64,000 bases of DNA from an uncultured Acidobacteriota bacterium (GTDB taxonomy: Bacteria > Acidobacteriota > Thermoanaerobaculia > UBA5066). Below the pieces are notes generated by a model. The model was given only the letters and a program-made list of their open reading frames with translations. It made no database searches and had not been told where the DNA came from. Positions within the stretch are counted from its first letter, which is position 1; each line of letters starts with the position of its first letter. The position numbers were made by a program, and so were the translations under genes. The stretch covers positions 14,708 to 78,707 of the forward strand of contig CAWIIN010000003.1 of the NCBI GenBank assembly GCA_963836285.1, written 5' to 3'. This document shows, one piece after another, positions 12,419 through 35,406 of the stretch.

Positions 12419-12504
12419 AGAAGGGTGTTTGCAGCGACGCGCCCAAGTGACCGCGGCGCGGTGACCGCCGCCTCGGCGCCACACACACCTTCTAAGAAAA
12501 TCTT

Positions 12505-15245: not shown

Positions 15246-16775
15246 TCAGCGCGTCCCCACGCGTCGCCGCGCCGGGCCTCCCTCCAGCGCGGCATCGGAG
15301 GGCAGCCATTCCCTCGCCGATCCGTCGTCCATGACGAGACACTGCGGGCCGGGAAGAGCGCGCAGCCGCGCGGACAGCGCCCGATTGCGGTCCGGGCTGT
15401 GGTACGGAATGAACCGCACACGCTCGTCGCTCAGGAACTGAAGAGTGTACGAGGTGTCGTACCCCGCGTGGCAGACCGTGTAGCCCTGCCGCACGATCGC
15501 CTCGACCGTCGGCCGAGAGTCGGGCTCGAGAAGGATGTCCGCGACCGTGCGCCCCGCCTGCCGCCAGAGAAACACGGCCACGAGGAGCGCGAGCCCCGCC
15601 GACGCGGCCGCGACGAGCGCGGCGGGAGCCCTCCGCCTCAGGAGGCGCGTGGTTTCCGAGAACGCGACGGCGAGGAGAGCCAGCACGGGCGGAAGCGCGG
15701 GGGTGACGTAGCGCAGCTGGGCCGGGTCGACGTTCATGAAGACGAGCGCCGCCGCGGCGAGCGCCGCGATCGAGGCGACGAGGAGGAGACCCGCGGCAGG
15801 AGCACGAGGGCGGCCGGACTCGGCGACTCCGGGGCGCCTCGCGCGCCGCGTCGCGGCGAGAAGCCCCGCGAGGAGGACGGCCGCCGCGCCGACGAGGACG
15901 GGCGCCGGAGCGAGCCCCTCGAGACCCGTGAGGCGCCAGAACTCCCCGCCGACGAAATGGACGAGCCGGACCGGGGCATCCGCCAGGCGCCACGGGGGGA
16001 CGACCGGGCCCGCGGCCGGCTCGTACCAGCCGAGGAGGCGCCCCAGCCAGACCGGCGCATAGCCGACGAGGGCGCCGACGACGAGCGGCGCCGTGTCGCG
16101 CGCCCCGCGTCGCCCGGGGCGCAGCAGGACGACGGCCGCGGCCGGGAGGAGAACGAAGACGATCGTCTGGTTCATCCACCAGCCGATTCCCGCGATCAGT
16201 CCGAAGGCGAATCGCCCCCAAAACCCGTCGACGACGGGCCGTGGATGCTTCAGGACGTTCGCCGCCAGGAGGAACAGCAGGGAACCGAGCAGGAAGGACA
16301 TCTCGGGCCCGAGTCCGCTCTTGTGAAGCGCCGACAGCCGGACGAAGAACGGTGGGCCGATGGCCATCCAGAATCCGGCGGCCGCGGCGATCACGCGCCC
16401 GAAAAGCGGCCCGAATGCCAGAACGTAGATGCAGATGCCGAGCGCGATCTCTCCCATGCTGGCCAGCCGCAGCGCGATCGGCCCGCCCTCGACTCCGATG
16501 CCCGCGGGGTCGAGGAACACCCTGCGAATCCCGGCGGCGAGGGCGGGTGTCAGCGGGCCCATGTAGTTCTGCCCCCAGAAGAAGACGTCGAATCCCGCCC
16601 CGTCGTGGATCTTCTTCGCCATGAGGCCGAAGATCGCGCTGTCTCCGTTCCAGCCGCGCGCCGAGCCCTCCACGGTGAGGAGCGGGAGCCTCACGAGGAC
16701 GAAGACGGCGAGGACGGCCGCGATCGACGCCGCGCCGAGGAGCGATTCTCTCCGGTCCGTTCCTGGGGTCTTCAC
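15246..16775 (-). CDS. glycosyltransferase family 39 / ArnT-like membrane glycosyltransferase
   Basis: About 12 TM helices. N-terminal DxD-like loop (SAIFGLMAKKIHDG). The overall pattern resembles the dolichyl-phosphate-mannose/ArnT families. Confidence 0.6.
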   Translation of the reverse strand: MKTPGTDRRESLLGAASIAAVLAVFVLVRLPLLTVEGSARGWNGDSAIFGLMAKKIHDGAGFDVFFWGQNYMGPLTPALAAGIRRVFLDPAGIGVEGGPIALRLASMGEIALGICIYVLAFGPLFGRVIAAAAGFWMAIGPPFFVRLSALHKSGLGPEMSFLLGSLLFLLAANVLKHPRPVVDGFWGRFAFGLIAGIGWWMNQTIVFVLLPAAAVVLLRPGRRGARDTAPLVVGALVGYAPVWLGRLLGWYEPAAGPVVPPWRLADAPVRLVHFVGGEFWRLTGLEGLAPAPVLVGAAAVLLAGLLAATRRARRPGVAESGRPRAPAAGLLLVASIAALAAAALVFMNVDPAQLRYVTPALPPVLALLAVAFSETTRLLRRRAPAALVAAASAGLALLVAVFLWRQAGRTVADILLEPDSRPTVEAIVRQGYTVCHAGYDTSYTLQFLSDERVRFIPYHSPDRNRALSARLRALPGPQCLVMDDGSAREWLPSDAALEGGPARRRVGTR

Positions 16776-16788
16776 GTCCCCGGGACTT

Positions 16789-18930
16789 CTACTTCGCGAT
16801 GCCCAGTCGCGTCAGGAGGAACGCCTCGTCGAGCGCGATCTCGTGAAGGTAGTCGTACCGCCCCGACGCGCCGCCGTGGCCTGCGGCCATGTTCGTCTTC
16901 AGGAGCAACGGGTTCGCGTCGGTCTTGAGCGTACGCAGGCGCGCGACGTACTTCGCGGGCTCGTGGTAGAAGACCTGGCTGTCGTTGAACGACGTCTTCA
17001 CGAGCATCGCGGGGTACACGCCCTTCTTGAGGTTCGTGTACGGGCAGTACGTCCGGATGACCTCGTACTCGTCCTTCTTCGCCGGGTTTCCCCACTCCTC
17101 GTACTCGCCGACCGTGAGCGGCAGCGTCGCGTCGCTCATCGTGTTCAGGACGTCCACGAACGGCACGTGCGCGATCACGGCCGTGAAGAGGTCACGCCGC
17201 ATGTTCACGACGGCGCCCATGAGGAGGCCGCCGGCGCTCCCGCCCTCGATCGCGAGGCGGTCCTTCGCGGCGATCTTCTCCGCGACGAGATGCTCGGCGG
17301 CCGCGACGAAGTCCGTGAACGTGTTGCGCTTGTTCTTCATCCGGCCCGCGTCGTGCCAGGCCTTCCCCATCTCGCCCCCACCGCGGATGTGGGCGACGAC
17401 GTAGACGACGCCGCGGTCGAGGAGCGGGAGCCGGTCGGAGCGGAACGTGACGGGGATCGGGATGCCGTACGAGCCGTAGCCGTAGAGGAGCGTCGGGAAC
17501 GGTCCGTCCTTGAGCGTCCGCGCCGTGCCGTCCGCCGCCTTCGAGCGCCAGACGACCGAGAGCGGGATCTTCGTCCCGTCCGAGGCCGTCGCCCAGAGTC
17601 GCGCCGACGAGTACCGGGTCCGGTCGAAGCCCGGCACCTCCCATTCCTTGAGGAGCGTGGCCTTGCGCGCGTCCATGTCGTAGTCGAAGACGGACTGGGG
17701 CGTCACGAAGGACTGGTAGTCGTAGCGGAAGAACTTCGTGTCCCACACGCGGTTCGTTTCGGGGCTCGCCGTGTAGACGGGCTCAGGGAACGACACGGCG
17801 TGCGACGCGCCGGTCGTAAAGCTCCGGACCGTGAAGCGCGGGAGCCCGTGCGCGCGCTCCTCGAGGACGAGATGGTCCTTGAAGAGGTCGACGCCCTCGA
17901 GCATCACATCGGGTCGGTGCGGGACGATCTCCTTCCAGTTCGCGCGCCCGGGGGCCGCGATGGGCGCCGTCACGAGCCGGAAGTTGCGCCCTCCGGAGTT
18001 CGTCCGGATGTAGAAGAGATCGCCGCGGTGGTCGACGTCGTACTCGTGGTCCTGCTCGCGCGCGGCGACGAGCGTCCACGTGCCGTCGGGCACGTCGGCG
18101 CGAAGGACGCGAGCCTCCGACGTCGTGTGGCTCGCGCTCTCCATCACGAGCCAGTCCCGGCTCCGCGTCCGGCCCACGTGGACGCCGAACCTCTCGTCCT
18201 TCTCCTCGTAGAGGAGCGCGTCCGCGAACACCAGCGTCCCGACCCGGTGCCGGTAGACGCGGTGCGAGCGCTTCGTCGTCTCGTCCTCGACCGAGTAGAA
18301 GAGAGTCTTTCCGTCCGCCGCCCACGCCACGCTCGTGACGCGCAGCATCCGCTCGGGGAGGAGCGCGCCGGTCTTCAGGTCCTTGACGGCGAGCGTGTAC
18401 TGGCGGAAGCCCGTGTCGTCCGTCGAGTACGCGAGGAGGCTCCCGTCGTCCGACGGGCGGAACGCACCGAGCGACATGAACTTCTTGCCCGCGGCGAGCG
18501 CGTTCAGGTCCACGAGGACCTGTTCGGCGCCCTCCGGGAAGGGCTTCCGGCAGTGGATCCGGTACTGCTTCCCCTTCTCCGTCCGGTAGTAGTAGAGGAA
18601 CGCGCCGTCGCGATAGGGAACGGAGAGGTCGGTCTCCTTTACGTGCGCGACCATCTCGTCGTAGAGCCCCTTCTGCAGGGGCTCGGTCGGCTTCAGGATC
18701 GCGTCGGTGTACGCGTTCTCGGCCTCGAGGTACGCGGCGACCTCCGGGTTCGGCTTGTCGCGCAGCCAGTAGTACGGGTCGGGCCGCGGGTCGCCGTGGA
18801 GAAGGTGAGTCATCTCCACCTTCTTCGCCACGGGTGGAGTCGGCGGCGCGGGCGCGGCCGTCTGGGCGTTGGCGGGGGAAGCGGCGGTCGTCATCGTGAG
18901 GAGAAGGATCGGGAGGGACGCATGTCGCAC
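16789..18930 (-). CDS. ptrB: oligopeptidase B (protease II, S9A prolyl oligopeptidase family)
   Basis: Signal peptide. Beta-propeller region. The catalytic-domain GGSAGGLLMG nucleophile elbow and the C-terminal MAAGHGGASGRYD motif are present. Confidence 0.9.
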   Translation of the reverse strand: MRHASLPILLLTMTTAASPANAQTAAPAPPTPPVAKKVEMTHLLHGDPRPDPYYWLRDKPNPEVAAYLEAENAYTDAILKPTEPLQKGLYDEMVAHVKETDLSVPYRDGAFLYYYRTEKGKQYRIHCRKPFPEGAEQVLVDLNALAAGKKFMSLGAFRPSDDGSLLAYSTDDTGFRQYTLAVKDLKTGALLPERMLRVTSVAWAADGKTLFYSVEDETTKRSHRVYRHRVGTLVFADALLYEEKDERFGVHVGRTRSRDWLVMESASHTTSEARVLRADVPDGTWTLVAAREQDHEYDVDHRGDLFYIRTNSGGRNFRLVTAPIAAPGRANWKEIVPHRPDVMLEGVDLFKDHLVLEERAHGLPRFTVRSFTTGASHAVSFPEPVYTASPETNRVWDTKFFRYDYQSFVTPQSVFDYDMDARKATLLKEWEVPGFDRTRYSSARLWATASDGTKIPLSVVWRSKAADGTARTLKDGPFPTLLYGYGSYGIPIPVTFRSDRLPLLDRGVVYVVAHIRGGGEMGKAWHDAGRMKNKRNTFTDFVAAAEHLVAEKIAAKDRLAIEGGSAGGLLMGAVVNMRRDLFTAVIAHVPFVDVLNTMSDATLPLTVGEYEEWGNPAKKDEYEVIRTYCPYTNLKKGVYPAMLVKTSFNDSQVFYHEPAKYVARLRTLKTDANPLLLKTNMAAGHGGASGRYDYLHEIALDEAFLLTRLGIAK

Positions 18931-19352: not shown

Positions 19353-20426
19353 TCAGGGTGTCGGAGGTCCCGTGCGGACCACCGTCGCGGGCGCCGCCGC
19401 CATCAACAGCTCCCAGAACCGCGGGTTGAAGTCGTCGCCCGGCGAATCGCCCAGGCGCACCACCACGAGATCGAGGCTCGGCACCACGTACACCTTGCGT
19501 CCCAGCGCTCCCTGCGCGGCGTACAGATCCCGCGGAGCAGCGGGCGCGAGCACCGCATTGCCGGCCGCCCCCGGCGCGGTGCCCGGCGGCCGGCCGTTCA
19601 GCCACCACAGGAGGCCGTAGGCCGGATTGAGGCCTTGCGACGGCTTGACGGCCGTCTCGACAAATCCTTTCGATACCAGCCTCCGCCCCTGCCAGACGCC
19701 CCCGGCCAGCATCAACTCGCCGAATCGGACGAGGTCCCGTGCCGTCGTGAAGAGTCCGAGCAAGTTGGCATCCATGCCGGGGGTAACCCAGCGCCGCCGT
19801 CGCCATCCCGTGTTGTCCATGCCGATCGGGTCCGTCAGCCAGCGCTTCGTGAGCGAGCCGATTCCGTCCCCGGTGACCGCTTCCAGCACGTCCACCAGCC
19901 GGCTGTAGGCCCGTGTGTTGTATTGCCACACGCTCCCGGCGGGCGCCTGATACTCGAGCGCGGGCGAGAGTCCGCTGGTCATGGACAACAGGTGCCGGAC
20001 CGTGATCACGGATTCTTCGTCGCATGTGGCGTTGGACCAACCGGCATGGAGATACGTCGAGACCGGCACGGCAAGATCGAGCAGCCCCTGGTCGGCCGCG
20101 ATCCCCACCAGCACCGACACGATGCTCTTCTGCAGAGAGGCGACGTCTTCGATGGGCGCACCGGCCTCGGTCTTGCCCCACACCTGGTTCGCGTACGGCG
20201 ACCCGGCGCCCGCCTCCACGGGCCAGTAGCGTTCCGCGATCACCTTGCCGTGGTGGACGACGATGACGGCGCTCGAACGCTCACGCTGCGCATAAGCCAG
20301 CAGGGACTCCAGTGCAGCCTGGTTCCATGGATGCTCACCGCCGGTCGCTTCGCCCTCCGCCGCGACGCGCGAGGGCTCTGCGAGCCCGACCAGCATCATC
20401 AGGATCGCCAGACCGAGTCCCTTCAC
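19353..20426 (-). CDS. beta-lactamase-related serine hydrolase (class C/PBP4-like), secreted
   Basis: Signal peptide MKGLGLAILMMLVGLAEP. The S-x-x-K motif ASLQKS and a YxN-like region are present. Confidence 0.75.
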   Translation of the reverse strand: MKGLGLAILMMLVGLAEPSRVAAEGEATGGEHPWNQAALESLLAYAQRERSSAVIVVHHGKVIAERYWPVEAGAGSPYANQVWGKTEAGAPIEDVASLQKSIVSVLVGIAADQGLLDLAVPVSTYLHAGWSNATCDEESVITVRHLLSMTSGLSPALEYQAPAGSVWQYNTRAYSRLVDVLEAVTGDGIGSLTKRWLTDPIGMDNTGWRRRRWVTPGMDANLLGLFTTARDLVRFGELMLAGGVWQGRRLVSKGFVETAVKPSQGLNPAYGLLWWLNGRPPGTAPGAAGNAVLAPAAPRDLYAAQGALGRKVYVVPSLDLVVVRLGDSPGDDFNPRFWELLMAAAPATVVRTGPPTP

Positions 20427-20455: not shown

Positions 20456-21649
20456 CTACCGCCGCCGCACCACCTCACCGCTGCCCATGCCGCCGCCGAC
20501 GCACCGGGTGGTGACGCCGAGGGCCGCGTCTCTCAGGCGCAGCTGGTGGACCATGTCCACGACCTGGCGCGCGCCCGTGCAGCCCACCGGGTGCCCGAGG
20601 GAGATGCCGCTGCCCCACTGGTTCGTACGCTCTGCCTCGAGCCCGGGGAGGACGTGGTATGCCGCCGCGACGACCGCGGCAAATGCCTCGTTGATCTCGA
20701 AGTAGTCCACCGCGGAGAGGTCGACACCGGCTCTCGTCAGGAGAGGCGGGATGACCTTGAAAGCGCCCTCGCCCATGAACGCGCGCTCGACGCCGACGTT
20801 GTGATAGGCCACGATCTCCGCGAGGGGCTCGAGCCCGAGCTCGGCGGCGCGCTCCTCGCTGGCGAGCAGCACCACCGCGGCACCGTCGTTGAGAGTCGAG
20901 GCGTTCGCCGAAGTGATGGTGCCCCCGTCCTTCTTGAAGTAAGGCTTGGCGGCCGCCAGTTGCTCGAGGGTCACCGGCCGCGGCCCCTCGTCCCGGGCCA
21001 CGACGACCGGTGCGCCGCGTTTCTGCGGCACCTCCACGGGCACCACGTAGCCGCCGAAGGCCCCCTTCTCCCAGGCGTCGAGGGCCGCGTGGTGGCTGCG
21101 GTAAGCGGCCTCGTCCTGCTCCTCGCGGGTCACGGCGTACTTGTCCACGAGGCGCTCGGTGAGGAGGCCCATCAGCTCGCCGCCGCACACGTGCGCGTCG
21201 GTGAGGGCGCCGAAGAGGCCGTCCATCAAGGTCATGTCGCCGTACATCTGGTTCTTCGTGCGACCCGTGAAGAGGTAACGCGGCACGTTGCTCATGGACT
21301 CGACCCCGCCGGCGATGCCGAGCGAGACCTCCCCGAGCAGGATGCGCCGGCACAGGCTGTGGATCGCGGCGCCGCCGGAGGCGCAGTTTTCCTGGTAGGT
21401 GGTTCCGGGCACGGTCGGCGGCACGCCCGCCAGCTCGGCCGCGGTCTTGGCCAGGTTGGGAGAGCGCGGATCCTGCATGACCCAGCCCATGCACGTGTAC
21501 TCGACCGCTGCGGGGTCGATCCGGGCCGAGCCGAGGAGAGCCTTGATCACGTGGGTGGCGAGCTGCTCGGCCTGCAGGCTCGCGAGGCCTCCCCCGATGG
21601 CGCCGATCGGCGTGCGCACGGCTCGAACGATGACGACCTTGTCAGGCAC
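20456..21649 (-). CDS. acetyl-CoA C-acetyltransferase (thiolase II)
   Basis: The MPDKVVIVRAVRTPIGAIGG start, the CASGG active-site Cys, and the C-terminal GHPVGCTGARQV / CVGGGMG motifs are present. Confidence 0.9.
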   Translation of the reverse strand: MPDKVVIVRAVRTPIGAIGGGLASLQAEQLATHVIKALLGSARIDPAAVEYTCMGWVMQDPRSPNLAKTAAELAGVPPTVPGTTYQENCASGGAAIHSLCRRILLGEVSLGIAGGVESMSNVPRYLFTGRTKNQMYGDMTLMDGLFGALTDAHVCGGELMGLLTERLVDKYAVTREEQDEAAYRSHHAALDAWEKGAFGGYVVPVEVPQKRGAPVVVARDEGPRPVTLEQLAAAKPYFKKDGGTITSANASTLNDGAAVVLLASEERAAELGLEPLAEIVAYHNVGVERAFMGEGAFKVIPPLLTRAGVDLSAVDYFEINEAFAAVVAAAYHVLPGLEAERTNQWGSGISLGHPVGCTGARQVVDMVHQLRLRDAALGVTTRCVGGGMGSGEVVRRR

Positions 21650-21703: not shown

Positions 21704-24502
21704 TCAGAACGCGACCTGGGCCCTGACCTGCAACCGTCTCGGGCCGACCCAGCCCGATGGCTCGAAGTTCTGGCCCGGGAAGAGCACCCACGACGAGTAG
21801 TACTCCACGGCGTCGTCGTTGAGCGCGTTGAGAAGCTGCAGACCGAGGTCAAGGGTCACGCCCTTGCCCAGGTTGAAGGTCTTCTGCAGGCCCAGGTCGA
21901 GAATTGCCTGACTCGGCAGCCGGAGGCTGTCGCTGGCGTCCGCGGTGACGGTGATGACCGTTCCGGTCGTCGGCCCGATGACGTTCGCGAGCCGGGCGTA
22001 GGGCCGGCCGCTCTGCCAGTTGAAGACGCCGCTCGCCCTGAGGCCCCAGCCGAGGTCGACGTTCGACTGGATCCGGAACATGTGGGTCCGGTCGCCCTCC
22101 TGCAGGTGGTAGGCGTTGTACCAGTCGTTGGGGTCGGACCCCTCGTCGCTGCTGAACACCGGCAATCCCTGTCCCAGGGAGCCGTTGTAGTGAGGCCTCG
22201 GATTGATCCCCTCCGTCTTCGAGTAGGTGTAGGACGCCATCAGGTCCCAGCCGCGGCTGTAGCGCTTCTTGAACGTCAGGATGGCGCCCCTGTAGTACAT
22301 GTGGTAGGTGTCGTTGGGCGCGAGGGACCCCGGCCCCGGTCCGTTGCCCTTGTGCAACGTCGGGTTCTTCGTGAGCTCGCAGAGCGGGATCTGCTCCTTG
22401 ACGTCCGTCGTCCAGGGGTCGTCCCAAAGGAACGTCTTGCAGGTGCCGTCGGCCTCGATCTGCCAGCCGATCATGTCGTCGGTGTGCTTGTAGATGAACT
22501 GCGCCCCGACGGCGAAGTCGCTGCCGATCTGGTGGTCGTAGGACGCCGCGAACTGATCCGTGTAGGGGTTCTTCACGCCTGGAGCGAGCAGCTGGTCGGG
22601 CGGCGGGGCCGCCACCGACGAGACGCGGAACTGGTACGGATAGACGAACCAGACTTCCGAGTTGCCCCGTCCCGGCGGCGGGTAGTACCACGCGGACGAA
22701 ACCGGGCCGTCCCAGAAGCGGCCGTAGAACCCCCGCAGCACGGACTTCCCGTCGTTCGTCGGCTGCCAGGCGAAGCCGATGCGCGGCGCGAAATTACTCC
22801 AGTGGATCATGTCCGCGGACGGCAGCATCACGTCCGTCGGGTTTCCGGCGAGGTCGAGCTGCGGGTAGGAAGGGATCTTGCCCTTCTGATCGTCGTAGCG
22901 CACGCCCACGTCGAGCGTCAGCCGGTTGCTGATCTTCCACGAATCCGTCAGGAACGCCGACCACGTCGTGGTCTCGGCCCCGTAGATGAGGGGCGGAATG
23001 ATCTGGTAGCGGAACTCCCAGTAGGGGTCCGTGAAGCCCGGGCTCGGCGGCTGCTTCCACAGGAAGGTGGAATGAGCGGCGTTCCGCTGGCCGCTTCCCT
23101 CGTTGTACTGGACGCCGAACTTGAACTCGTGGCTCCCCTTGATGAAGTCGCTCGCGAACTGCGACAGCACCGCGTCGGCCTGGGTGTACTTCTCCTTGCG
23201 GCCGCTGAACCAGAAGATCCCGCCGAGGTTGAGGGGCGGGCCCAGATAGGTGGCGTCCTGCAGGTACTCTTCCGTGCTGCCGGTGCGCGAAGCCATGTCC
23301 TGGTTCTTGTCCCAGTACCCGCCCCGAAGGTTGAGCAGCGTGCTGGGGGCCAGGTTCCCGGTGTAGTCACCCGTGATCATGTTGATGTCGATGTCGGTCT
23401 TCACGACGGCCGAAAGCGCCGTGTACATGTCGGGCGCGGGGACGATCTTCCCTTTCGCCGTGTGTCCACGAACGTCGAGGTGATGGCCGTCGGCGATCTG
23501 CCAGCTCAGCTTTCCGTCGTAGCGGCTGTCCGTCGTGCCGGAGCCGTCGACCCCCGAGACGCCATTGGGGCCCACGATGTTGATCTTGTCCCACTGGCCG
23601 GCGCCGAAGAACCACAGCTTGTCGCGGAGAATCGGCCCCCCGAGGGTCGCACGTGTGTCGTAGTAGTCGTCGACGGTGTACGTGCCCGCAGGTTCCCAGA
23701 GGCGGTAGGAATAGAGTTTCGATCTGTCGAGTGTGACGTTCGAACCGGTGAGGGCGTTGTTCGACCAGTAGCCTCCGGCCGAGCCGTGGTACTGGTTGGT
23801 CCCGGACTTCGTGACCATGTTGTAGACGTTGCCCGCCGTGCTGCCGTACTCCGCCCCGGCCCCGAAGCCCTTGAGCGAGGTCTCCTGAACGATCTCCGGG
23901 TTGATCAACCAGCCCAGCCAGCCGCCCTCGGGGGACGCCAGATTGAGGCCGTCGATGTTCCACTGCTGGGACGTGACGTTGCCGCCGTACGCCGCGAGCA
24001 GGGCATTTCCCTCGTTGGGCGAGCTCACGGCCGGAGCCACCGAGATGATGTCGGTGAAGTTGTTGCGCGTCGGCAGGGACTGGACGAACTGGGAGTCGTA
24101 GTTGACGGCCACGGCCGAGCTCACCACGTCTACCAGGGGGGCCGTGGCCGTCACGGTCATTTCCGAGGCGGCCTGCAGCGGCACGCGGATCTTGACCGAA
24201 GCCACGGCGTCGATCGACACCCGGACGTCCTTGACCCGCTGGGTCTTGAACCCCGAGACGCTGGCCGAGAGCGCATAGCGCCCGACCGGCAGGGCGCCGT
24301 AGCGGAAGGCGCCCTTTGCGTCGGACGTCGTCAGGCGCTCGGCTCCCGGGATCGGGTCCCCGGTGAGCTTCACCGTGGCGCCCGGGAGCGGCTGGCCTTC
24401 CGAATCGGTCACTTGGCCCTGGATCGACCCGGTAATCTGGGCGAATCCGTTGGTGGCTGCCAGTAACAGCAGACCGAGAATGACCCACTTCCCTGACCTC
24501 AT
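21704..24502 (-). CDS. TonB-dependent receptor with N-terminal carboxypeptidase-regulatory-like domain
   Basis: Start MRSGKWVILGLLLLAATNGFAQ with GGAGG upstream. ITGSIQGQVTDSEGQPLPGATVKL is the CarbopepD_reg domain typical of Acidobacterial TBDRs. The C-terminal residue is F. Confidence 0.85.
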   Translation of the reverse strand: MRSGKWVILGLLLLAATNGFAQITGSIQGQVTDSEGQPLPGATVKLTGDPIPGAERLTTSDAKGAFRYGALPVGRYALSASVSGFKTQRVKDVRVSIDAVASVKIRVPLQAASEMTVTATAPLVDVVSSAVAVNYDSQFVQSLPTRNNFTDIISVAPAVSSPNEGNALLAAYGGNVTSQQWNIDGLNLASPEGGWLGWLINPEIVQETSLKGFGAGAEYGSTAGNVYNMVTKSGTNQYHGSAGGYWSNNALTGSNVTLDRSKLYSYRLWEPAGTYTVDDYYDTRATLGGPILRDKLWFFGAGQWDKINIVGPNGVSGVDGSGTTDSRYDGKLSWQIADGHHLDVRGHTAKGKIVPAPDMYTALSAVVKTDIDINMITGDYTGNLAPSTLLNLRGGYWDKNQDMASRTGSTEEYLQDATYLGPPLNLGGIFWFSGRKEKYTQADAVLSQFASDFIKGSHEFKFGVQYNEGSGQRNAAHSTFLWKQPPSPGFTDPYWEFRYQIIPPLIYGAETTTWSAFLTDSWKISNRLTLDVGVRYDDQKGKIPSYPQLDLAGNPTDVMLPSADMIHWSNFAPRIGFAWQPTNDGKSVLRGFYGRFWDGPVSSAWYYPPPGRGNSEVWFVYPYQFRVSSVAAPPPDQLLAPGVKNPYTDQFAASYDHQIGSDFAVGAQFIYKHTDDMIGWQIEADGTCKTFLWDDPWTTDVKEQIPLCELTKNPTLHKGNGPGPGSLAPNDTYHMYYRGAILTFKKRYSRGWDLMASYTYSKTEGINPRPHYNGSLGQGLPVFSSDEGSDPNDWYNAYHLQEGDRTHMFRIQSNVDLGWGLRASGVFNWQSGRPYARLANVIGPTTGTVITVTADASDSLRLPSQAILDLGLQKTFNLGKGVTLDLGLQLLNALNDDAVEYYSSWVLFPGQNFEPSGWVGPRRLQVRAQVAF

Positions 24503-24520: not shown

Positions 24521-24549
24521 ATAAGTTGACCGGCCTGCCGGTATAGTTC
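24521..24549. promoter_or_regulatory. palindromic operator ACCGGCCTGCCGGT (copy 1) in the tetR/TBDR divergent promoter
   Basis: It reads CATAAGTTGACCGGCCTGCCGGTATAGTTC, with a 5-bp inverted repeat ACCGG-N4-CCGGT at 24529-24542 in an AT-rich context. It is nearly identical to the site at 35307-35335. Confidence 0.6.
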
Positions 24550-24611
24550 TAACATCTGATACCCTCGAACGCGCGCCTGTCAAGGGAAAACTAGCGAGAA
24601 AGAAGGCCCGA

Positions 24612-25247
24612 TTGAAGGCTCGACCGAGACCGGCAACGACGATGAAATCCCCCGCTCGCCCCCCCCGTCGGGCGAGTCGGCGCGACGAGATCCTGCGGCG
24701 CGCCGCACACCTGATCCTGGAGCGAGGATTCGAGATCATCTCGCTGGTGGACGTCGCACGGGCCTGCGAGATCAGCAAAGCCGGGCTGTACTACCACTTC
24801 AACAGCAAGCAGGAGCTGCTGGCCGCGATCATCAGCTACGCCCAGGACATCCACGAGGATGTGATCCGGAAAGAGCTGACCAACAGCGCCGCGGATGCCG
24901 CCGAAGACCTGCGCCGTCTGATCCACTCTCACGCCGTCATGATGACCCGCGAAGACGACGCGGCTTTCGCGATCCTTGCCGTCGACGAGATGCGGTCGCT
25001 GCTGCCGGCCGACCGGGAACGTGTCGCCCGCCGCAAGCGCTTCTACCTCGGCCTCATTCGCGAGCGCCTGGAGCGGCTGGCGGCGGCCGGCAAGCTGCGC
25101 GACGTCGACATCACCGCCGCAACTCACACGCTGGCCGGCATGGTGCTGTGGCTGCCCAAGTGGTACCGACAGCCGGGCAGGCTGTCAGCCGCGCAGATGG
25201 CGGACGAGATCACCGAGCTCGCCATGCACGCCGTCCTGCCGATTTGA
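24612..25247 (+). CDS. TetR/AcrR family transcriptional regulator
   Basis: HTH region ISLVDVARACEISKAGLYYHFNSKQELL. The alternative start MKSPARPP is at 24642. It is divergent from the TonB receptor gene. Confidence 0.85.
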   Translation: MKARPRPATTMKSPARPPRRASRRDEILRRAAHLILERGFEIISLVDVARACEISKAGLYYHFNSKQELLAAIISYAQDIHEDVIRKELTNSAADAAEDLRRLIHSHAVMMTREDDAAFAILAVDEMRSLLPADRERVARRKRFYLGLIRERLERLAAAGKLRDVDITAATHTLAGMVLWLPKWYRQPGRLSAAQMADEITELAMHAVLPI

Positions 25248-27493
25248 GCGGCTTGCGCCGCGAGGCGGTCATCGCCTTCGTCGCCGTGGTGGCGATCGCG
25301 AGCGCCGCTTTCGCCTTCCGCCTCCTGCGCGTTGGAAGGCCGGCGGCTCCGCATGCCCTGGCACGCCCCGATGCCGCGGCAAACGTCATCCTGATCACCC
25401 TCGACACCCTCCGGTCCGACCGTCTCTCGTGCTACGGGTCGAAGACCGTGGATACCCCGAACATCGACGCGTTCGCGGCAGAGGGCGTCCGCTTCACGAA
25501 CGCCGCGAGCACGGTCCCCCTCACCCTCCCCGCGCACGCGTCGATCATGACCGGCCTCTACCCGCCGGGCCACGGCGTACGTGAGAACGTCGGGGCCGTC
25601 CTCGACGCGCGCATCCCGACGCTCGCCGAGCTGCTCGGCAGGAGCGGCTGGGCCACGGCCGGCTTCGTGAGCGCGTTCGTGCTCGACCACCGATGGGGAA
25701 TCGGGCGCGGCTTCGACCGTTACTTCGACGACTTCGATCTCGGCGGGCTGGAGACGGCGAACGTGGCGAACGTGGGGTTGGTGCGACGCGACGGCGCCGA
25801 TACCGTCGCCGCCGCGGTGCGCTGGCTCGACAAGAGGCCGGCCGGCCGCCCGTTCTTCCTCTGGCTCCACCTTTACGACCCTCACGATCCGTACGCGCCG
25901 AAGGAACCCTTTCGCTCGCGTCATCCGGGACGGCCGTACGACGCCGAGGTCGCGTACACCGACTCGCTCGTCGGCGAGTTCCGGCGTGCCCTGGGCGAGC
26001 GTCGACTCCTCGAGCACTCTCTCGTCGTCGTCACCAGCGACCACGGCGAAGGTCTCGGCGACCACGGCGAGACCTTCCACGGCTTCCTCGTGTACGACAC
26101 GACGATTCGCGTCGCGCTCATCGTCAAACCTCCCGCGGGCCTCCGCGCGGGACGTGTCGTGGACCGGACGGTGAGTCACGTCGACATCCTGCCCACGATC
26201 CTCGACATGGTGGGCCTGAAGGCGCCCGAGAACCTCCACGGACGGAGCCTTGCGCCGCTGATCGCCGGCCGGGACGTGCCCTGGGATCGGCCCGTGTACT
26301 CCGAGTCCCTTTACCCGCTGCTGCACTACGGGTGGGCGCCGCTCCGGGCGTTCCGCACGGGCCGCTTCAAGCTCATCGACGTCCCCCGGCCCGAGCTGTA
26401 CGACCTCGCGCAGGATCCCGCCGAGGCACGGAACCTCCACGACGCGGAGCCGAACCGGGCCCGGGAGCTGACCGCCGACCTCGGCCGCCTCCGTCATCGC
26501 ATCGAAAGCGGCACGCCATCGGGCGGGAAAGCGCCCGAGAGGGACGAGCGCTCCGTCGCCAGGCTGCGGTCGCTCGGCTACCTGGCCGGCGGACGAGGCG
26601 TCCACGCCGAGAACGAGGACGAGCGGGCCCGCCCCGATCCCAAGGACCGCCTCGATCTCCACCAGAAGGTCGTGGACGCCCAGAGCAGAATCTCTCACCA
26701 CGAATACGACGCCGCGTCGCGGCTCCTGGAGCAGGTCCTCGCCCGGGATGCGACGATCGTCGACGCACACCAGATGCTGGGCCAGATCGCTTCCGAGCAG
26801 CACCGACCGGAAAACGCGATCCGCCACTTCAAACGGGTCCTCGAGCTCAAGGGCCCGGATGCGCGCACGTCGCTCGCAATCGCCGACAATTACGTCGCCC
26901 TCAGACGGTTCGACGACGCCGCCGCGGTGCTCGAGAAGGCCTCTCAGAACGGTGAATCAGCGCCTTTCTTCGCCAACAAGCTGGGCGAGGTGCGCGTCGA
27001 GCAGGGCCGTGACGGCGAGGCCGTGCCTCTGTTCGAACGCGCGGTCACCCTCGACGACGGCTTCGCCCTCCCCCACTTCAACCTGGGCGTCCTCCACGAG
27101 AAGCGCGGCGAGGTTCGACTCGCCGCCGAGCAGTACACGCGGGCGGTCCAGCTCGAGCCCGGGTTCCTCAGGGCGCAGTTCAACCTCGCCCGGCTTTACG
27201 CCTCGACGGGCGACGTGGAACGGGCGAGGCAGCTCTGGGATGCGTTCCTCGCGTCCAACCCCGGGTCGGTCCAGGGTCGCTATGTTCTGGCGAAGCTCCT
27301 CATGGACACGGGCGGCGATCTCGGACGCGCCGAGAAACTGGCCCGGGAAGGCATCGCGCTCGATCCGGAGAACGCAGAGGGACCGCTCGGCTACTACGTT
27401 CTCGCCGATCTGCTGAACCGCACGGGCCGCGCGGCCGAGGCGCGCGCAGCGGCGGCGAAAGGTCGCGAGATCCAGGGTGCGGGGAAGAACTGA
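25244..27493 (+). CDS. sulfatase-like hydrolase/transferase (alkaline phosphatase superfamily) with C-terminal TPR repeats
   Basis: TTG start overlaps the tetR stop (TTGA). There is an N-terminal TM helix. ILITLDTLRSDRL and TVPLTLPAHASIMTG show Thr at the nucleophile position rather than Cys/Ser. The C-terminal TPR-like region runs from about residue 500 to the end. The alternative ATG at 25148 overlaps tetR by 100 nt. Confidence 0.7.
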   Translation: MSGLRREAVIAFVAVVAIASAAFAFRLLRVGRPAAPHALARPDAAANVILITLDTLRSDRLSCYGSKTVDTPNIDAFAAEGVRFTNAASTVPLTLPAHASIMTGLYPPGHGVRENVGAVLDARIPTLAELLGRSGWATAGFVSAFVLDHRWGIGRGFDRYFDDFDLGGLETANVANVGLVRRDGADTVAAAVRWLDKRPAGRPFFLWLHLYDPHDPYAPKEPFRSRHPGRPYDAEVAYTDSLVGEFRRALGERRLLEHSLVVVTSDHGEGLGDHGETFHGFLVYDTTIRVALIVKPPAGLRAGRVVDRTVSHVDILPTILDMVGLKAPENLHGRSLAPLIAGRDVPWDRPVYSESLYPLLHYGWAPLRAFRTGRFKLIDVPRPELYDLAQDPAEARNLHDAEPNRARELTADLGRLRHRIESGTPSGGKAPERDERSVARLRSLGYLAGGRGVHAENEDERARPDPKDRLDLHQKVVDAQSRISHHEYDAASRLLEQVLARDATIVDAHQMLGQIASEQHRPENAIRHFKRVLELKGPDARTSLAIADNYVALRRFDDAAAVLEKASQNGESAPFFANKLGEVRVEQGRDGEAVPLFERAVTLDDGFALPHFNLGVLHEKRGEVRLAAEQYTRAVQLEPGFLRAQFNLARLYASTGDVERARQLWDAFLASNPGSVQGRYVLAKLLMDTGGDLGRAEKLAREGIALDPENAEGPLGYYVLADLLNRTGRAAEARAAAAKGREIQGAGKN

Positions 27494-27515
27494 CGAACTT
27501 CATGGAGGCCACCGC

Positions 27516-28502
27516 ATGAGAATCCTGGCGCCGCTCGTCGCGATCATCCTTACGGGAGGTACACAGGTCGGGCTCGCCGACGCGCCGACCGTCGTCGCCG
27601 AGGAATGGCTTCTCGTCAGCAAGGAGCCGCAGACGCCCGAAGGCCTGATCTTCGATCGCGACGGGAATCTCTACATGGTCCTCGTGGGCAACGGCAGCGT
27701 CCTGAGGTCGGCTCCCCCGTACAAGACGGTGACGACCATCTACGGGCCGTCCAAGAGCCGCTTCGCCACGGTCAAGATCCACAAGGACGGCAGGCTGTTC
27801 CTCTGCGATCTCGGCGAACGGGCCGGCTACCGGGGGGACGACACGGGCCGCATCGTCGCGATGCGGCCCGACGGGACGAACATGGAGGTCATCGTCCCCG
27901 CCGGCCGCTACACACCCGACGACATGGTCTTCGACGGCAACGGCGGCTTCTACTTCACCGACTTCAAGGACTACACGGACGCCGGCAACCTCGCGAACGG
28001 CGCCGTGTATTACGTCTCCCCGGACTTCAAGACGATCACCCCGGTCCTGAAGAACCTGGCCTCGCCCAACGGTGTCGCGCTGAGCCGGAACGGAAAGACC
28101 CTCTGGGTGACGGAAACGTTTCACCAGCAGCTGCACCGGCTCGACCTCGCGGCCGACGGAACGACCTTGAATCTCTACGGCCACATGATCCCCTATCGCT
28201 TCAACGGGTTCGGCGGTCCCGATTCGGCGACGATCGACGCCGACGACAACGTCTACGTCGCTCACTTCGGGTCGGGGAAGGTCATGGTGTTCAACGCGCT
28301 CGGCAACCTGATCGGAGAAATCCGGATCCCGGGAAGCGAGGCGGGCGCCATGCTGGCCTCGACGACGATGGCGATCCTTCCGGGCACGAACGAGCTGATC
28401 CTCGGCGCAGGGGATTTCGCCGGACGCGGCGCCCGGATCTTCAAGGCGAAAGCGTTCGGCAAGTCCTGGGACGGCGCGTTTCAGTTCCAGAAGGCGCCAT
28501 GA
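27516..28502 (+). CDS. SMP-30/gluconolactonase/LRE family protein, secreted
   Basis: GGAGG is upstream. Signal peptide MRILAPLVAIILTGGTQVGLADA. The SGL beta-propeller pattern is present (FDRDGNLY, MVFDGNGGFYFTD). Confidence 0.8.
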   Translation: MRILAPLVAIILTGGTQVGLADAPTVVAEEWLLVSKEPQTPEGLIFDRDGNLYMVLVGNGSVLRSAPPYKTVTTIYGPSKSRFATVKIHKDGRLFLCDLGERAGYRGDDTGRIVAMRPDGTNMEVIVPAGRYTPDDMVFDGNGGFYFTDFKDYTDAGNLANGAVYYVSPDFKTITPVLKNLASPNGVALSRNGKTLWVTETFHQQLHRLDLAADGTTLNLYGHMIPYRFNGFGGPDSATIDADDNVYVAHFGSGKVMVFNALGNLIGEIRIPGSEAGAMLASTTMAILPGTNELILGAGDFAGRGARIFKAKAFGKSWDGAFQFQKAP

Positions 28503-29278
28503 ACCGGTTCCGCAACACTCCGTTCGACCTCTCCGGCCGCTCGGCGCTCGTCACGGGCGCCGGGCGCGGGTTGGGCAAGGAGATGGCACGGCTCCTGGCG
28601 AACGCCGGGGCCGACGTGGCGATCTGCAGCCGAACCGAATCGCAAATCGAGGCGGCCGCGCGCGAGCTGGCGGGCGAAGCGGGCACGCGCGTCGAGGCCA
28701 TCGTGGCGGACGTCGGCACGCGGCCGGGCGCCGAGCGCCTCGCGCGCGACGCCACGGCACGTTTCGGAAAGATCGACATCCTGATCAGCAACGCGGGATG
28801 GAACGTCCCGCAGCCGGTCGACGGAATCCGGGACGAGGACTGGGACGCGCTTCTGGAGCTGAACCTGACGAGCTCGATGGTCCTGACGCGCGCCCTCGCG
28901 CCGGGGATGATGCAGCGCGGGTGGGGGCGCGTCGTCTATGTCTCCTCGATCATGGGCCTCGCGAGCGCGAGCGATCGTGTCGCCTACAGCACGACCAAGG
29001 CCGCGCTGCACGGGATGGTGAAGGCCAACGCGCTCCGGCTGGGCCCGCACGGCGTGACGGCGAATTGCCTCGCACCCGGACCGTTCGCGACGGAGCTGAC
29101 CGCGAGCCGGCTGACGGCGCAGCAGAAGGAGGCGTTCGCCGCCCGCACCGCCGTGGGACGGTGGGGGGAGCCGGCGGAGCTCGCGCCCACCGCGCTGCTC
29201 CTCGCGAGCCCCGCCGGCAGCTACATCACCGGCGCGGTCATCGTCGTCGACGGGGGTGCGACCGCGCGTATGTGGTGA
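28499..29278 (+). CDS. SDR family oxidoreductase (gluconate 5-dehydrogenase/3-oxoacyl-ACP reductase-like)
   Basis: ATGA overlap with the upstream stop. The TGAGRGLG Rossmann motif, NAG, and YSTTKAAL catalytic residues are present. Confidence 0.85.
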   Translation: MNRFRNTPFDLSGRSALVTGAGRGLGKEMARLLANAGADVAICSRTESQIEAAARELAGEAGTRVEAIVADVGTRPGAERLARDATARFGKIDILISNAGWNVPQPVDGIRDEDWDALLELNLTSSMVLTRALAPGMMQRGWGRVVYVSSIMGLASASDRVAYSTTKAALHGMVKANALRLGPHGVTANCLAPGPFATELTASRLTAQQKEAFAARTAVGRWGEPAELAPTALLLASPAGSYITGAVIVVDGGATARMW

Positions 29279-29299: not shown

Positions 29300-29977
29300 T
29301 CACGCGCGCCGGATGAGACGCGCGAAATGCCGGGCGCTGGGCTTTGGCTTCCGGACGAAGGTGCGGCGATCGACGGCCACCAGTCCGAAATGCTGGCCGT
29401 ACCCCCGGGTCCACTCGAAGTTGTCGAGCAGCGACCAGTAGACGTAGCTGCGGACGTCGATCCCCTCGGCGAGGCACCGTTCGACTCCGGCGACGCACGC
29501 ATCCAGCCATGCGACGCGGCGCGCGTCGTCGTCGGTGGCGATCCCGCTTTCTGTGACGAAGATGGGCTTACGGGTCCTGCGCGCGGCGAAGCGGATCATG
29601 TCGGGAAGCGCCTGCGGGAAATACTCGTATCCCGCCGCGGTCCTCTCGGCGCCCACCTCCGGCGGCACGATCCCTTTCGCGTCGAACCGGAATCGCGTGT
29701 AAGCCTGCACCCCGACGAAATCGCTCGCGTTCACCGCGTCCCACCAGCTGCCGTAGAGCGTCCTCTCCATCGCGGAGGCGATGCTGCCGTCGCCGGCCGC
29801 CTCGATCGCCTGCGTCGTCAAGGTCACGCCGACGGCGAACCGGCCCGGGCCCGCCTTGATCGCCTGACACGCCTTCGCGTGGGCGTCGAGCAGATGGGCG
29901 TCGATGAGATCCGGATCCGCGAACAGGATCGAGGAAAAGCCCGGCGCGTTCGTCGCGCGTGCCGCGGCGGCGATCAT
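29300..29977 (-). pseudogene. glycoside hydrolase family 1 (beta-glucosidase) C-terminal remnant
   Basis: Only the distal ~225 aa of the ~450-aa GH1 fold is present (…FVTESGIATDDD…, VYWSLLDNFEWTRGYGQHFGLVAVDRRTF). The N-terminal half carrying the acid/base Glu is absent. Only 28 nt separate it from the next gene, and the upstream in-frame sequence is not GH1-like. Confidence 0.65.
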
Positions 29978-30005: not shown

Positions 30006-31178
30006 CTATCGTCGCTCGGCTCGGTACGCCCGCCCTTCCTGACGCACGATCTCGATCAGGTTGCCCATCGCGAGATTCATGTCGACGACGTGCAGGCCCC
30101 AGCTCTCGAGGACGCGGCCGTCCACCACAACGTCGCCCGTGATCGCCTCCGTGCGCGCCCCGCCCGGCGTGGGGTGAATCGTAACGGCGAGGTAGTTGTG
30201 GCTGCCGTTGCTGCGGCACTCGGCGCTGAGAAGGCCCGGCGCCCGGACGAACGGCGTGACGATCGGCCTCGGTGGGTTCGTCCAGGGGCCGAGCGCCAGT
30301 CCGTCGACGACGGGAGTCTCCGTGCCGGACGCGAGGTAAGCGTGGAGCGGTCCGGTCCCTCCGCCGAGCGCCGCCGGATTCACGCACGCCGCCTCAAGCC
30401 CCGGACCGGCCGAGGCCCCGAACATCCGCGCATCGGCGGGCGGGGGGCTGTTCGCACGGAACGACGCGAAGTTGATCGCGCAGCCCAGCTGACGGGCGGA
30501 CCGGCACAGGGGGATGGACTTGAAGTCGCCGCCCACGTCCTTGCCCACGGGCACCTGAAGTCGGTAGCCGGCCAGGATCACCGACAGGATCCTGCGCTGG
30601 ACCGGCCTGCCGTCGATCTCGTTCCGAACGAGCTCGGCCAGCACGAGCGAGCCCTGGGAATGGCCGATCAACGCGACGCCGCGCCCGCGGTTGTCGTGCG
30701 TGAGGTAATGGTTCCACGCGTCCTTCACGTCGTCGTAGGCCAGGGCACGGTCCACGGCCACCGGACGGCCCCTCAGGTTGGAACGGAGCGCCGTGAGGGT
30801 CGCTTGACGATAGACGGGCGCGTAGGGCCGGCAAACCGAAGCGAAGCGGGCGAACTGCTGGCCGACCACCGCGATCTGCTGCTTCTGGACCTTCATCGTC
30901 GCGTTGCCGCCCGGGTCCAGCGAGACGGTGGGATAGACGTAGAAGCAGTCGATCGGGGCGTCGGGATCCGCGTGAAACCGCTCGAGACGCGTCGAGCCAT
31001 CGGCACGAATCACGGTCGCGTCCTGATCGGATCGACCGCATGCATCCGTCGCCCGCCCGGGGCGGCAGAGCCACGCCGCCGGATCGGAATAGTCGTTGGG
31101 GCCGGACGTTTCGACCTGAGCGGGGGCCTGCCGGCAGCCAAGCAGGACGGCGATCAGGAGCACGGCCGGGAATCTCAT
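30006..31178 (-). CDS. DUF3089-family alpha/beta hydrolase lipoprotein
   Basis: Start MRFPAVLLIAVLLGCRQAP (lipobox). The GHSQGS nucleophile elbow is present. The long N-terminal extension of the ORF is rejected. Confidence 0.65.
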   Translation of the reverse strand: MRFPAVLLIAVLLGCRQAPAQVETSGPNDYSDPAAWLCRPGRATDACGRSDQDATVIRADGSTRLERFHADPDAPIDCFYVYPTVSLDPGGNATMKVQKQQIAVVGQQFARFASVCRPYAPVYRQATLTALRSNLRGRPVAVDRALAYDDVKDAWNHYLTHDNRGRGVALIGHSQGSLVLAELVRNEIDGRPVQRRILSVILAGYRLQVPVGKDVGGDFKSIPLCRSARQLGCAINFASFRANSPPPADARMFGASAGPGLEAACVNPAALGGGTGPLHAYLASGTETPVVDGLALGPWTNPPRPIVTPFVRAPGLLSAECRSNGSHNYLAVTIHPTPGGARTEAITGDVVVDGRVLESWGLHVVDMNLAMGNLIEIVRQEGRAYRAERR

Positions 31179-31204
31179 GAACGCCTCGTGGACCCGCCCT
31201 GCCT

Positions 31205-32527
31205 TCAGTACAGGACGATTCCCAGCGGGATGACGACGAGCAGGGCGGCGAGCGTCGCGAGGACGTGGCCGATGAAGATATGCTTGTAGGCTTGGCGGTG
31301 CGTCAGCCCGGCGACCGCGAGCATGGTGATCACGGCGCCGTTGTGCGGCATGGCATCGAAGCACCCCGCGGACATCACGATGATCCTGTGGACGAGATCC
31401 GGGCTCAGGCCCAGGGCCAGGTACTTGGGCGCCAGCGTCTCCAGGACGATTCCCATGCCGCCGGAGGCGGAGCCGGTGATCGCCGCCATGATGTTCGTGG
31501 CGACCGAGAGAGAGATGATCGGAGGCATGGAAAGGGTCAGAAGCCATGCGGACACGACGCTGAAGCCGGCCGTAGCCGCGATTGCCATCCCGTAGCCGAC
31601 GTCGGCGCAGGTATTGATGATCGGAATCACGGTGTTTGCGGCGCCCCTGCTGATGGTGTCCGGCAGGCTGGTGAACCGCCTCCAGAACAGGATCATCGAG
31701 ACCAGAATCCCTATGCCGAGGGCATAGATCACATCGACCTTCACCGCGGGAACGTTCAGAAAGACGAGAACGGCCATCATCGGAACCAGGCTAAGCCAGA
31801 CGTTGGGCATGTCTCCCGGGTCGACGGCCGTCGCGGCGGGCACGCCGGAACCGCCGGGCGGGACATAATGCTCGCCTTCCCTCTTGAATCTGTTCACACA
31901 ATACTTCATGTAGAGGACGTTCAGCACGAACACGACGAGAGCGCCGACCAGACCCAGTACGGGGGCTGACGCGGGCGTGGAGTTCATGTACTTCGTGGGC
32001 ATGAGGTTCTGGATCTGTGGCGTGCCTGGGATCATCGTCATGGTCATGGAGGCGGCGCCGAAGACGAAGGAAAGGATGAACAGATGCCAGGGGATGTCCG
32101 CTTCCTGCCAGAGGTGCCGGGCGATGGGGAGCACCGTGAAGATGACGACGAAGAGACTCACGCCGCCATAGGTCAGGACCATGGGGACCAGGGAGAACGC
32201 GATCAGAACACGCAGCGGCTTGTCGGCGTCGCCGCCGACGAGCTTCAGGATCGCCCGGGCGACGGACCGGGCCGCGCCGCTGTCTTCCATGAACTTTCCG
32301 AAGAGAGTGCCCATCAGAAAGATGAGATAGAACTTGCGGGCGTAGTTGGTAAACCCGGTCATGTACGGCCCGGTCAACGTCTGAAGGACGTTCAAATCGG
32401 AGAAGATCGCCGCGATGATGGCCGCCAGCGGCGCGAGGATGATGATGTGCCACCCTCGCAGCGCCAGCACGATGATGAAAACCAGGGACACGACGATGCC
32501 AAGAGTGCTAATAGTGCCCGCGTCCAC
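31205..32527 (-). CDS. GntP family permease (gluconate/sugar-acid:H+ symporter)
   Basis: About 12 TM helices with typical GntP/DsdX-family patterns (GGVSLFVV..., SAGCFDAMPHNGAVITMLAVAGL). Confidence 0.8.
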   Translation of the reverse strand: MDAGTISTLGIVVSLVFIIVLALRGWHIIILAPLAAIIAAIFSDLNVLQTLTGPYMTGFTNYARKFYLIFLMGTLFGKFMEDSGAARSVARAILKLVGGDADKPLRVLIAFSLVPMVLTYGGVSLFVVIFTVLPIARHLWQEADIPWHLFILSFVFGAASMTMTMIPGTPQIQNLMPTKYMNSTPASAPVLGLVGALVVFVLNVLYMKYCVNRFKREGEHYVPPGGSGVPAATAVDPGDMPNVWLSLVPMMAVLVFLNVPAVKVDVIYALGIGILVSMILFWRRFTSLPDTISRGAANTVIPIINTCADVGYGMAIAATAGFSVVSAWLLTLSMPPIISLSVATNIMAAITGSASGGMGIVLETLAPKYLALGLSPDLVHRIIVMSAGCFDAMPHNGAVITMLAVAGLTHRQAYKHIFIGHVLATLAALLVVIPLGIVLY

Positions 32528-34216: not shown

Positions 34217-34286
34217 GGGACACGAGTTCTGGAGTCGAGTGGGGTCTGACACGTTGGATCTCCTCCTCGGAACGCGCATTGCGAGG

Positions 34287-35306: not shown

Positions 35307-35335
35307 ACATAACTTGACCGGCCTACCGGTACACT
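35307..35335. promoter_or_regulatory. palindromic operator ACCGGCCTACCGGT (copy 2) in the divergent SDR/CoA-transferase promoter
   Basis: CACATAACTTGACCGGCCTACCGGTACACTTATATATTAA. The palindrome is at 35317-35330, followed by an AT-rich TATATATTAA stretch. It matches copy 1 at 24521-24549 in 24/28 positions. Confidence 0.6.
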
Positions 35336-35406
35336 TATATATTAACCCGCAATAGAAACATGGAGTCAAGCGGCATCGAACTCCACCGTCGAAGCGACCA
35401 GGGAGG

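Follow-up and report, generated by a model that had tools for sequence, protein, structure and literature searches.

A shared inverted repeat at two divergent promoters points to a putative TetR regulon in an uncultured acidobacterium

Two divergent intergenic regions of this uncultured acidobacterial genome carry the same short inverted repeat, one of them beside a tetR gene, which raises the question of whether a single repressor governs the genes on all sides of both regions and, if so, by what logic and for which substrate. In the window (the whole 64-kb stretch of DNA analysed here), the 25-nt box ATAASTTGACCGGCCTRCCGGTAYA matches only at 24521–24545 and 35309–35333, both on the forward strand, with up to three mismatches allowed. 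The first copy (ATAAGTTGACCGGCCTGCCGGTATA) lies between the TonB-receptor and tetR genes and the second (ATAACTTGACCGGCCTACCGGTACA) between an SDR gene and the gene for CoA-transferase subunit A; the two copies are identical to each other at 22 of 25 nt, and the box had no match in 100 dinucleotide-preserving shuffles, the chance expectation being none. The initial annotation had reported its motif at two places only (24521–24549 and 35307–35335), and these ranges do contain both matches. A weight matrix built from the sites of relatives scores the boxes at 63 and 51 bits; read on the reverse strand, the same two boxes give weak scores of 4.2 and 1.5 bits, the best score elsewhere in the 64 kb is −18, and neither the weight-matrix scan nor the core scan found any further site in the window.

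The repeat itself is best described with the help of related genomes (positions are numbered from x0, the T of TTGACC). ACCG (x3–6) and CGGT (x13–16) are invariant among relatives in scans that left these positions free, while each arm, ACCGG or CCGGT, is variable at its fifth base, and we therefore define the repeat as ACCG-N6-CGGT. Thus the core first proposed, ACCGG-N4-CCGGT, occurs exactly at both boxes and nowhere else in the window, but it is not the repeat that relatives hold invariant. The proposed TetR operator core is ACCG GCCTGC CGGT at 24529–24542 and ACCG GCCTAC CGGT at 35317–35330. The spacer follows the consensus (G/A)CC(T/G)(A/C)(C/T), with the CC at x8–9 invariant, and in many relatives the whole reads ACCG-ACCG-AC-CGGT, which creates an extra inner palindrome with a 2-bp spacer, 4 bp out of register with the outer one. 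In the window both boxes have a degenerate inner half, GCCT, and the 2-bp-spaced inner version is perfect only in some relatives. The flanks ATAA (x−5 to −2) and ACTT/TTAT (x19–24) extend the repeat to a 30-bp imperfect palindrome.

Reading frames around the boxes were chosen by third-position G+C and annotated by Pfam, NCBIfam and PDB searches. Leftward from site 1 (minus strand) run genes for a TonB-dependent receptor with a CarboxypepD_reg domain (21704–24502), a thiolase of the acetyl-CoA C-acyltransferase family (20456–21649, 54 bp after the receptor gene) and an exported beta-lactamase-family serine hydrolase (19353–20426, 29 bp after the thiolase gene). Rightward (plus strand), in genes that overlap or abut, follow the TetR-family regulator (24642–25247, 201 aa, TetR_N plus TetR_C_24, AibR/PfmR-like), a sulfatase-family and TPR protein (25148–27493), an exported SMP-30/gluconolactonase-like protein (27477–28502) and, as the last gene of the tetR operon, an SDR oxidoreductase of 259 aa (28499–29278). 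The start codon of the sulfatase-TPR gene is uncertain; its ORF overlaps tetR by 100 nt and the real start is therefore probably farther downstream. The C/S-x-P-x-R formylglycine motif was not found in this protein, without which a true sulfatase may be doubted.

At site 2 the leftward operon (minus strand) begins with an MFE-2/HSD17B4-type (3R)-hydroxyacyl-CoA dehydrogenase, a 309-aa SDR (34287–35216), and continues with a type-B carboxylesterase with a lipoprotein-like signal (32555–34279), a GntP/CitMHS-like permease (31205–32527) and a DUF3089 protein with a lipobox-like N-terminus (30006–31199), the gaps between them being 7, 27 and 5 bp. Rightward (plus strand) lie subunits A (35407–36459) and B (36452–37285) of a CoA-transferase of the glutaconate CoA-transferase type. 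The neighbours of both sites and their strands are thus, by domain annotation, those that the initial annotation had named: receptor and thiolase opposite tetR at the first, SDR opposite CoA-transferase A/B at the second. Its picture of two loci 10 kb apart has to be replaced, because the rightward operon of site 1 and the leftward operon of site 2 converge at 29278/29300, making the whole one contiguous four-operon cluster of ~19.3–37.3 kb. Between the converging operons, the similarity of an ORF at 29300–29977 (minus strand) to glycoside hydrolase family 1 is confined to the C-terminal ~125 residues of that family, and the ORF looks like a truncated remnant. Among the annotated ORFs of the cluster there is no regulator gene other than tetR. 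Signal or lipoprotein-like N-termini are found on the receptor, both esterases, the DUF3089 protein and the lactonase-like protein, and are lacking on the thiolase, both SDRs and the transferase. In the NCBIfam search the general thiolase subfamily model TIGR01930 was the only enzyme or regulator model to reach its curated cut-off.

Promoter-like sequences surround each box. The AT-rich patches that the initial annotation had pointed to at both boxes are real: in a window of ~69% G+C only seven stretches reach 11 A+T in 14 nt, and two of them lie directly to the right of the boxes. The other five (2243–2256, 10123–10137, 12490–12510, 41520–41538 and 61843–61859) may mark other promoters. Each box belongs to a rightward sigma70-like promoter, TTGACC-N18-TAACAT at 24526–24555 (plus strand), proposed for tetR and the genes downstream of it, and TTGACC-N18-TATATT at 35314–35343 (plus strand), proposed for CoA-transferase A/B; a search of the 20-kb cluster for sigma70-like promoters matched these two and no others, and the TAnnAT −10 of the first is kept in the close relatives L025 and L059. 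The inverted repeat, which occupies the rightward promoter's spacer, also takes in the final bases of the −35, and the 25-mer is a composite of −35 hexamer and operator rather than an operator alone.

For the leftward direction, an alignment of 22 sites (window and relatives) contains a second conserved element, GTCAAG(G/A)GG, 51–56 bp to the right of the box, which on the minus strand reads CCCCTTGAC(T/A/G), a −35 that is followed 16–17 nt later by nnTAAT in most sites. The element is absent from the only site of the alignment without a divergent gene (L032, which lies between the CoA-transferase B and thiolase genes), and because it is lost there we read it as the leftward −35. Candidate leftward promoters, both on the minus strand, are TTGACA (24583–24578)-N16-TATCAG (24561–24556) for the receptor–thiolase operon, spanning 24556–24583, and TTGACT (35369–35364)-N17-GTTAAT (35346–35341) for the SDR–esterase–permease operon, spanning 35341–35369. 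The first has a weak −10, TATCAG instead of nnTAAT, and was not picked up by the promoter scan of site 1. With transcription starts predicted from these elements, the two promoters of each site would overlap within its AT-rich patch. Farther right, at ~60–110 bp from the box, the leaders (e.g. GGCATCGAACGAGGAAGGAAGG) and the ribosome-binding region are alike in tetR-type and thiolase-type sites of different genomes, which suggests that a whole promoter–leader module of ~110 bp has been duplicated within the cluster.

We consider it probable, on the strength of sequence and its comparison, that one bidirectional promoter/operator cassette is used twice here and that the AibR/PfmR-like TetR binds its repeat and represses all four operons. 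The TetR encoded at 24642–25247 would bind TGACCG-N6-CGGTAC, overlapping the −35 and filling the spacer of the rightward promoter while covering approximately +5 to +18 of the leftward transcript as counted from its predicted start. As this site would lie within the rightward promoter and just past the start of the leftward one, one bound repressor would shut both directions, tetR included: from site 1, the receptor, thiolase and hydrolase genes on the left and tetR, the sulfatase-TPR, lactonase-like and SDR genes on the right; from site 2, the (3R)-hydroxyacyl-CoA dehydrogenase, carboxylesterase, permease and DUF3089 genes on the left and CoA-transferase A/B on the right. An acyl-CoA made by the pathway would then release the repressor, as in classical induction.

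The regulator belongs to a group with solved and characterized members. Its Pfam domains are PF00440 (TetR_N, E 8.4e-13) and PF17932 (TetR_C_24, E 6.2e-22), and its best PDB match is AibR of Myxococcus xanthus (5k7f, E 2.5e-30, over residues 5–191 of 201), followed by an uncharacterized TetR-family protein (3dcf, E 1.8e-23) and PfmR of Thermus thermophilus (3vpr, E 3e-22); KstR2 (4w97) matches at only E 1.1e-8. The AibR operator is ACCTACCG-2N-CGGTAGGT, with a 2-bp spacer, in which Lys47 reads G12 and G13 of CGGTA and Tyr51 reads T14 (PMC5389471). For PfmR the selected consensus is CTGACCG-AT-CGGTCAG, likewise with a 2-bp spacer, and the promoters at which the protein sits, bidirectional ones among them, belong to genes of lipid and acyl-CoA metabolism (PMC7022988). 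In our alignment the base-contacting Lys47 and Tyr51 of AibR correspond to K46 and Y50, the phosphate-contacting residues R13, S34, S45, H52 and K56 are kept, and the helix ISKAGLYYHF is identical across all TetR orthologues compared. On the DNA side CGGTA is present in every box; the left arm TGACCG (x1–6) is the PfmR half-site and the right arm CGGTAC (that is, GTACCG) holds the AibR half-site TACCG, both half-sites being known from experiment. Between the arms of the box, however, there are 6 bp, where the operators of AibR and PfmR have 2 bp, and binding geometry or stoichiometry must for that reason differ from theirs.

How the regulator would respond to its ligand is a separate matter. 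AibR binds DNA only with isovaleryl-CoA, through a switch that involves His114 and Tyr171 (PMC5389471), and the same TetR acting on the same sites might follow such a logic, with the acyl-CoA-loaded protein binding DNA and the end product repressing the cluster by feedback. AibR is the closest characterized relative, and its CoA-contacting residues are conserved here (K131, K132, W169, K172 and K175 becoming K132, R133, W170, K173 and R176), so that the effector of this TetR, too, is probably an acyl-CoA. In contrast, Asp115 and Pro172 stand in place of the switch residues His114 and Tyr171, and six of eight acyl-pocket residues differ (F72H, L100M, V101M, V109A, I112A, L113V; Tyr134 and Leu168 are kept), because of which neither the effector of AibR nor the sign of its response can be transferred. 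Furthermore, the cluster looks catabolic, with its receptor, exported hydrolases and thiolase, and substrate induction is usual in such clusters. Feedback repression of this kind is therefore unlikely in our judgement, and we retain repression relieved by an acyl-CoA of the pathway as the preferred logic.

Loci fetched by protein similarity show where the box occurs in relatives. Homologues of the TetR reach up to 95% identity, in sources labelled Thermoanaerobaculales or Acidobacteria, and the box lies between the receptor gene and tetR at every tetR orthologue looked up, at five distinct loci (L001, L002–4, L055/56, L057/58 and L059; BLASTP identity 69–89% for full-length matches, the TetR of L059 being a shorter, partial match). 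At L005, where one CoA-transferase orthologue sits in a syntenic cluster, the box is found between the SDR gene and that of subunit A. As a control, CoA-transferase orthologues of 83–84% identity in non-syntenic loci have no such TetR and no box. In these loci (L006–L009, the P0139 and P0132 loci) the gene for subunit A, 83–84% identical, adjoins a carboxyltransferase and a MarR gene. Proteins 73–78% identical to subunit A occur in MAGs labelled Smithellaceae/Syntrophales, and since other CoA-transferase homologues are so labelled, the L006–L009 type is probably a Syntrophales one as well. Such high identity across phyla suggests that the A/B pair may have been transferred horizontally.

Two further loci show how the regulator itself has diverged. 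At L001 two TetR paralogues (10001–10660 and 16289–17083) flank the receptor–thiolase–hydrolase operon; the one that is 89% identical to the TetR of the window lies at the far end and has no box, the positional orthologue beside the box is 72% identical, and both have the same recognition helix. A TetR homologue of 49% identity (P0110), which we considered as a bridge for the spacer question, has no box upstream. Upstream of it is a 15-bp inverted repeat, CTTCCGTAGCGCCCG ... CGGGCGCTACGGAAG, with arms ~110 bp apart (L052, 5811–5947; L053, ~5833–5945), which is unrelated to the box.

Loci fetched by the motif give the same gene contexts in larger number, the cassette being present at ~45 sites in related uncultured Acidobacteriota, several of them MAGs labelled Thermoanaerobaculia/Thermoanaerobaculales. 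When 185,579 species genomes were scanned with AASTTGACCGGCCNNCCGGTA, 42 stretches matched, including 18 sites in seven acidobacterial MAGs that have the extended cassette ATAACTTGACCGGCCnnCCGGTACACTTATAT in common. The other 24, in other phyla, lack all flanking similarity and were set aside as chance matches. At all 18 acidobacterial sites the box points to tetR (then sulfatase-TPR), to CoA-transferase A/B or to thiolase, and the divergent gene is that of the receptor or belongs to the SDR–esterase–permease operon. A metagenome scan with the spacer left free (ATAACTTGACCG-N6-CGGTACACTT) added 22 sites, each of them adjoined by a receptor, tetR, SDR or thiolase gene. Positions fixed in these patterns are invariant by construction, and the independent evidence lies in the flanks, the gene contexts and the loci fetched by protein. 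Relative genomes have two to four boxes each, all within the cluster, and a thiolase gene placed elsewhere than behind the receptor gene has a box of its own (L022, L024, L032, L034, L060, L064). The scans of relatives amount to the genome-wide motif search called for at the outset, and in them the motif does not turn up at scattered, unrelated promoters. A single MAG contig (PQAJ01000276.1, with L014, L015 and L032) contains four boxes along with two genes for carboxylesterases, and the 309-aa SDR recurs on it as a fragmentary second copy; one of the boxes points at an alpha/beta-hydrolase gene that starts ~240 bp downstream.

These sites also bear on whether the box might be nothing but a strong promoter cassette that has been reused, or the site of some other regulator, with the adjacent TetR not bound to it. 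The box does hold a good −35, 18 nt from a −10, and the left arm is partly the −35 itself: its ACC is part of the hexamer, and this by itself could account for the conservation of these bases. Yet the ~45 sites are all identical at most positions of the spacer, a constancy that sigma70 does not require of a promoter spacer, and at C5 and G6 none of them departs toward the TTGACA consensus; both arms correspond to half-sites of the nearest characterized relatives of this TetR; no box was found without a gene for this TetR in the neighbourhood; and the cluster has no other regulator gene to which the site could be assigned. We regard this explanation as very improbable. That the palindrome acts instead as an RNA hairpin in the leftward 5′ leaders, affecting stability or translation, is hardly credible, for although the repeat would be transcribed from the predicted leftward start and at site 1 ends 19 nt before the receptor start codon, beside the ribosome-binding site, it is no more stably folded than sequence that has been shuffled (z = 0.34 and 0.04), its arms never covary, Rfam has no match to the region from 18 to 42 kb, and it is equally conserved where the downstream gene is the rightward one and the repeat lies upstream of that start. 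A TetR-bound DNA operator accordingly remains the preferred reading, and the original proposal of one TetR-type operator that links tetR, receptor and thiolase with the SDR and CoA-transferase genes draws support from comparison, through the orthologue loci, the half-sites and the contact residues.

As to what such a regulon would be for, the enzymes narrow the choice. The adjacent CoA-transferase subunits both contain PF01144 and match glutaconate CoA-transferase (1poi_A, E 4.4e-41; 1poi_B, E 1.6e-39), the match of subunit A to IpdA (6co6, E 4e-13) being far weaker than that to GctA. The MESG of subunit B aligns with the VESG of GctB, where the AibB chains shown have Ser or Asn, and its Glu is retained; we take the Glu of this ESG motif to be the catalytic residue. 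An identity as an AibA/B-type decarboxylase was rejected, given the retained Glu and the closer match to GctAB. In some sources the label ‘cholesterol catabolism regulator’ is attached to homologues of the TetR; a steroid, KstR2–IpdAB identity was likewise rejected, the KstR2 and IpdAB matches being much weaker than those to AibR and GctAB. The 309-aa SDR matches 2et6 (E 3.9e-130), 1gz6 (E 3.4e-74) and 1zbq (E 5.4e-73). The beta-oxidation-like pathway first envisaged thus holds for transferase, dehydrogenase and thiolase, but neither an acyl-CoA dehydrogenase nor a hydratase is encoded in the cluster, which has several exported hydrolases instead. This enzyme set, together with the exported esterases, the receptor and the permease, suggests a substrate that would enter as a 3-hydroxy acid after ester hydrolysis, for example from 3-hydroxyalkanoate oligomers, and the cluster may as a whole serve the uptake, ester hydrolysis and CoA-dependent breakdown of some acid.

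Among known systems the nearest is AibR (5K7F/5K7H/5K7Z), with which this regulator shares both domains, the base-reading and backbone-contacting residues, the half-site (T)ACCG/CGGTA and the CoA contacts. AibR is autoregulated and governs A/B genes of the glutaconate-CoA-transferase family, and a second promoter that it binds precedes a thiolase gene (PMC5389471). The same kinds of target are proposed here, and by analogy that second promoter would be a direct precedent for the proposed layout. Unlike the AibR system, the one described here has 6 bp rather than 2 bp between half-sites, other acyl-pocket and switch residues, A/B subunits that keep the catalytic Glu and are closer to true GctAB than to AibA/B, and a tetR that is not adjacent to the A/B genes, and it belongs to another phylum and comes with another set of genes (receptor, esterases).

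PfmR (TTHB023, 3VPR) has a half-site, TGACCG, that is identical to the left arm of the box, but its spacer is 2 bp rather than 6, its right half is not the CGGTAC found here, and its targets are genes of fatty-acid synthesis and phenylacetate metabolism. KstR2 of Mycobacterium (4W97) is also an acyl-CoA-binding repressor of the TetR_C_24 type and has CoA-transferase A/B, SDR and thiolase genes among its targets; in contrast, its similarity to this TetR is weak (E 1e-8) and the CoA-transferase of the window matches GctAB (E 4e-41) far better than IpdAB (E 4e-13). The KstR2 operator is reportedly AnCAAGnnCTTGnT, which is unrelated to the box. QacR-type operators, which take two TetR dimers, are alike in layout only and without any sequence relationship: here too there is a long conserved footprint with a 30-bp imperfect palindrome, and the third ACCG-like element in the spacer, 4 bp from the outer one, would fit two dimers in overlapping registers.

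It is possible, though we advance it only tentatively and think it rather doubtful, that ACCG-ACCG-NN-CGGT, with its three ACCG-type elements, is a new operator architecture of the AibR/PfmR group, bound by two dimers 4 bp apart or, at its outer pair, by one widened dimer, and that it governs a previously undescribed scavenging of ester-linked (3R)-hydroxy acids in uncultured acidobacteria of the Thermoanaerobaculia type. Such a route would begin with uptake across the outer membrane and the action of periplasmic esterases, and would continue through a GctAB-type CoA-transferase, an MFE-2-type dehydrogenase and thiolase, involving neither an acyl-CoA dehydrogenase nor a hydratase. More generally, the analysis offers a concrete regulon for an uncultured acidobacterial lineage, with one predicted repressor, a 30-bp site and four operons; by tying the receptor and exported esterases to a short cytoplasmic CoA-dependent route, it would also narrow the search for the substrate. 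As a regulon prediction it is sound, if fairly ordinary, and it does not overturn current understanding. Acyl-CoA-type TetR regulons of the AibR/PfmR kind are known, and this one would extend that group of acyl-CoA-sensing regulators to a new phylum; what appears to vary here is the spacing of the half-sites, and the same half-sites at another spacing would make a useful natural variant for learning how TetR dimers set that spacing.
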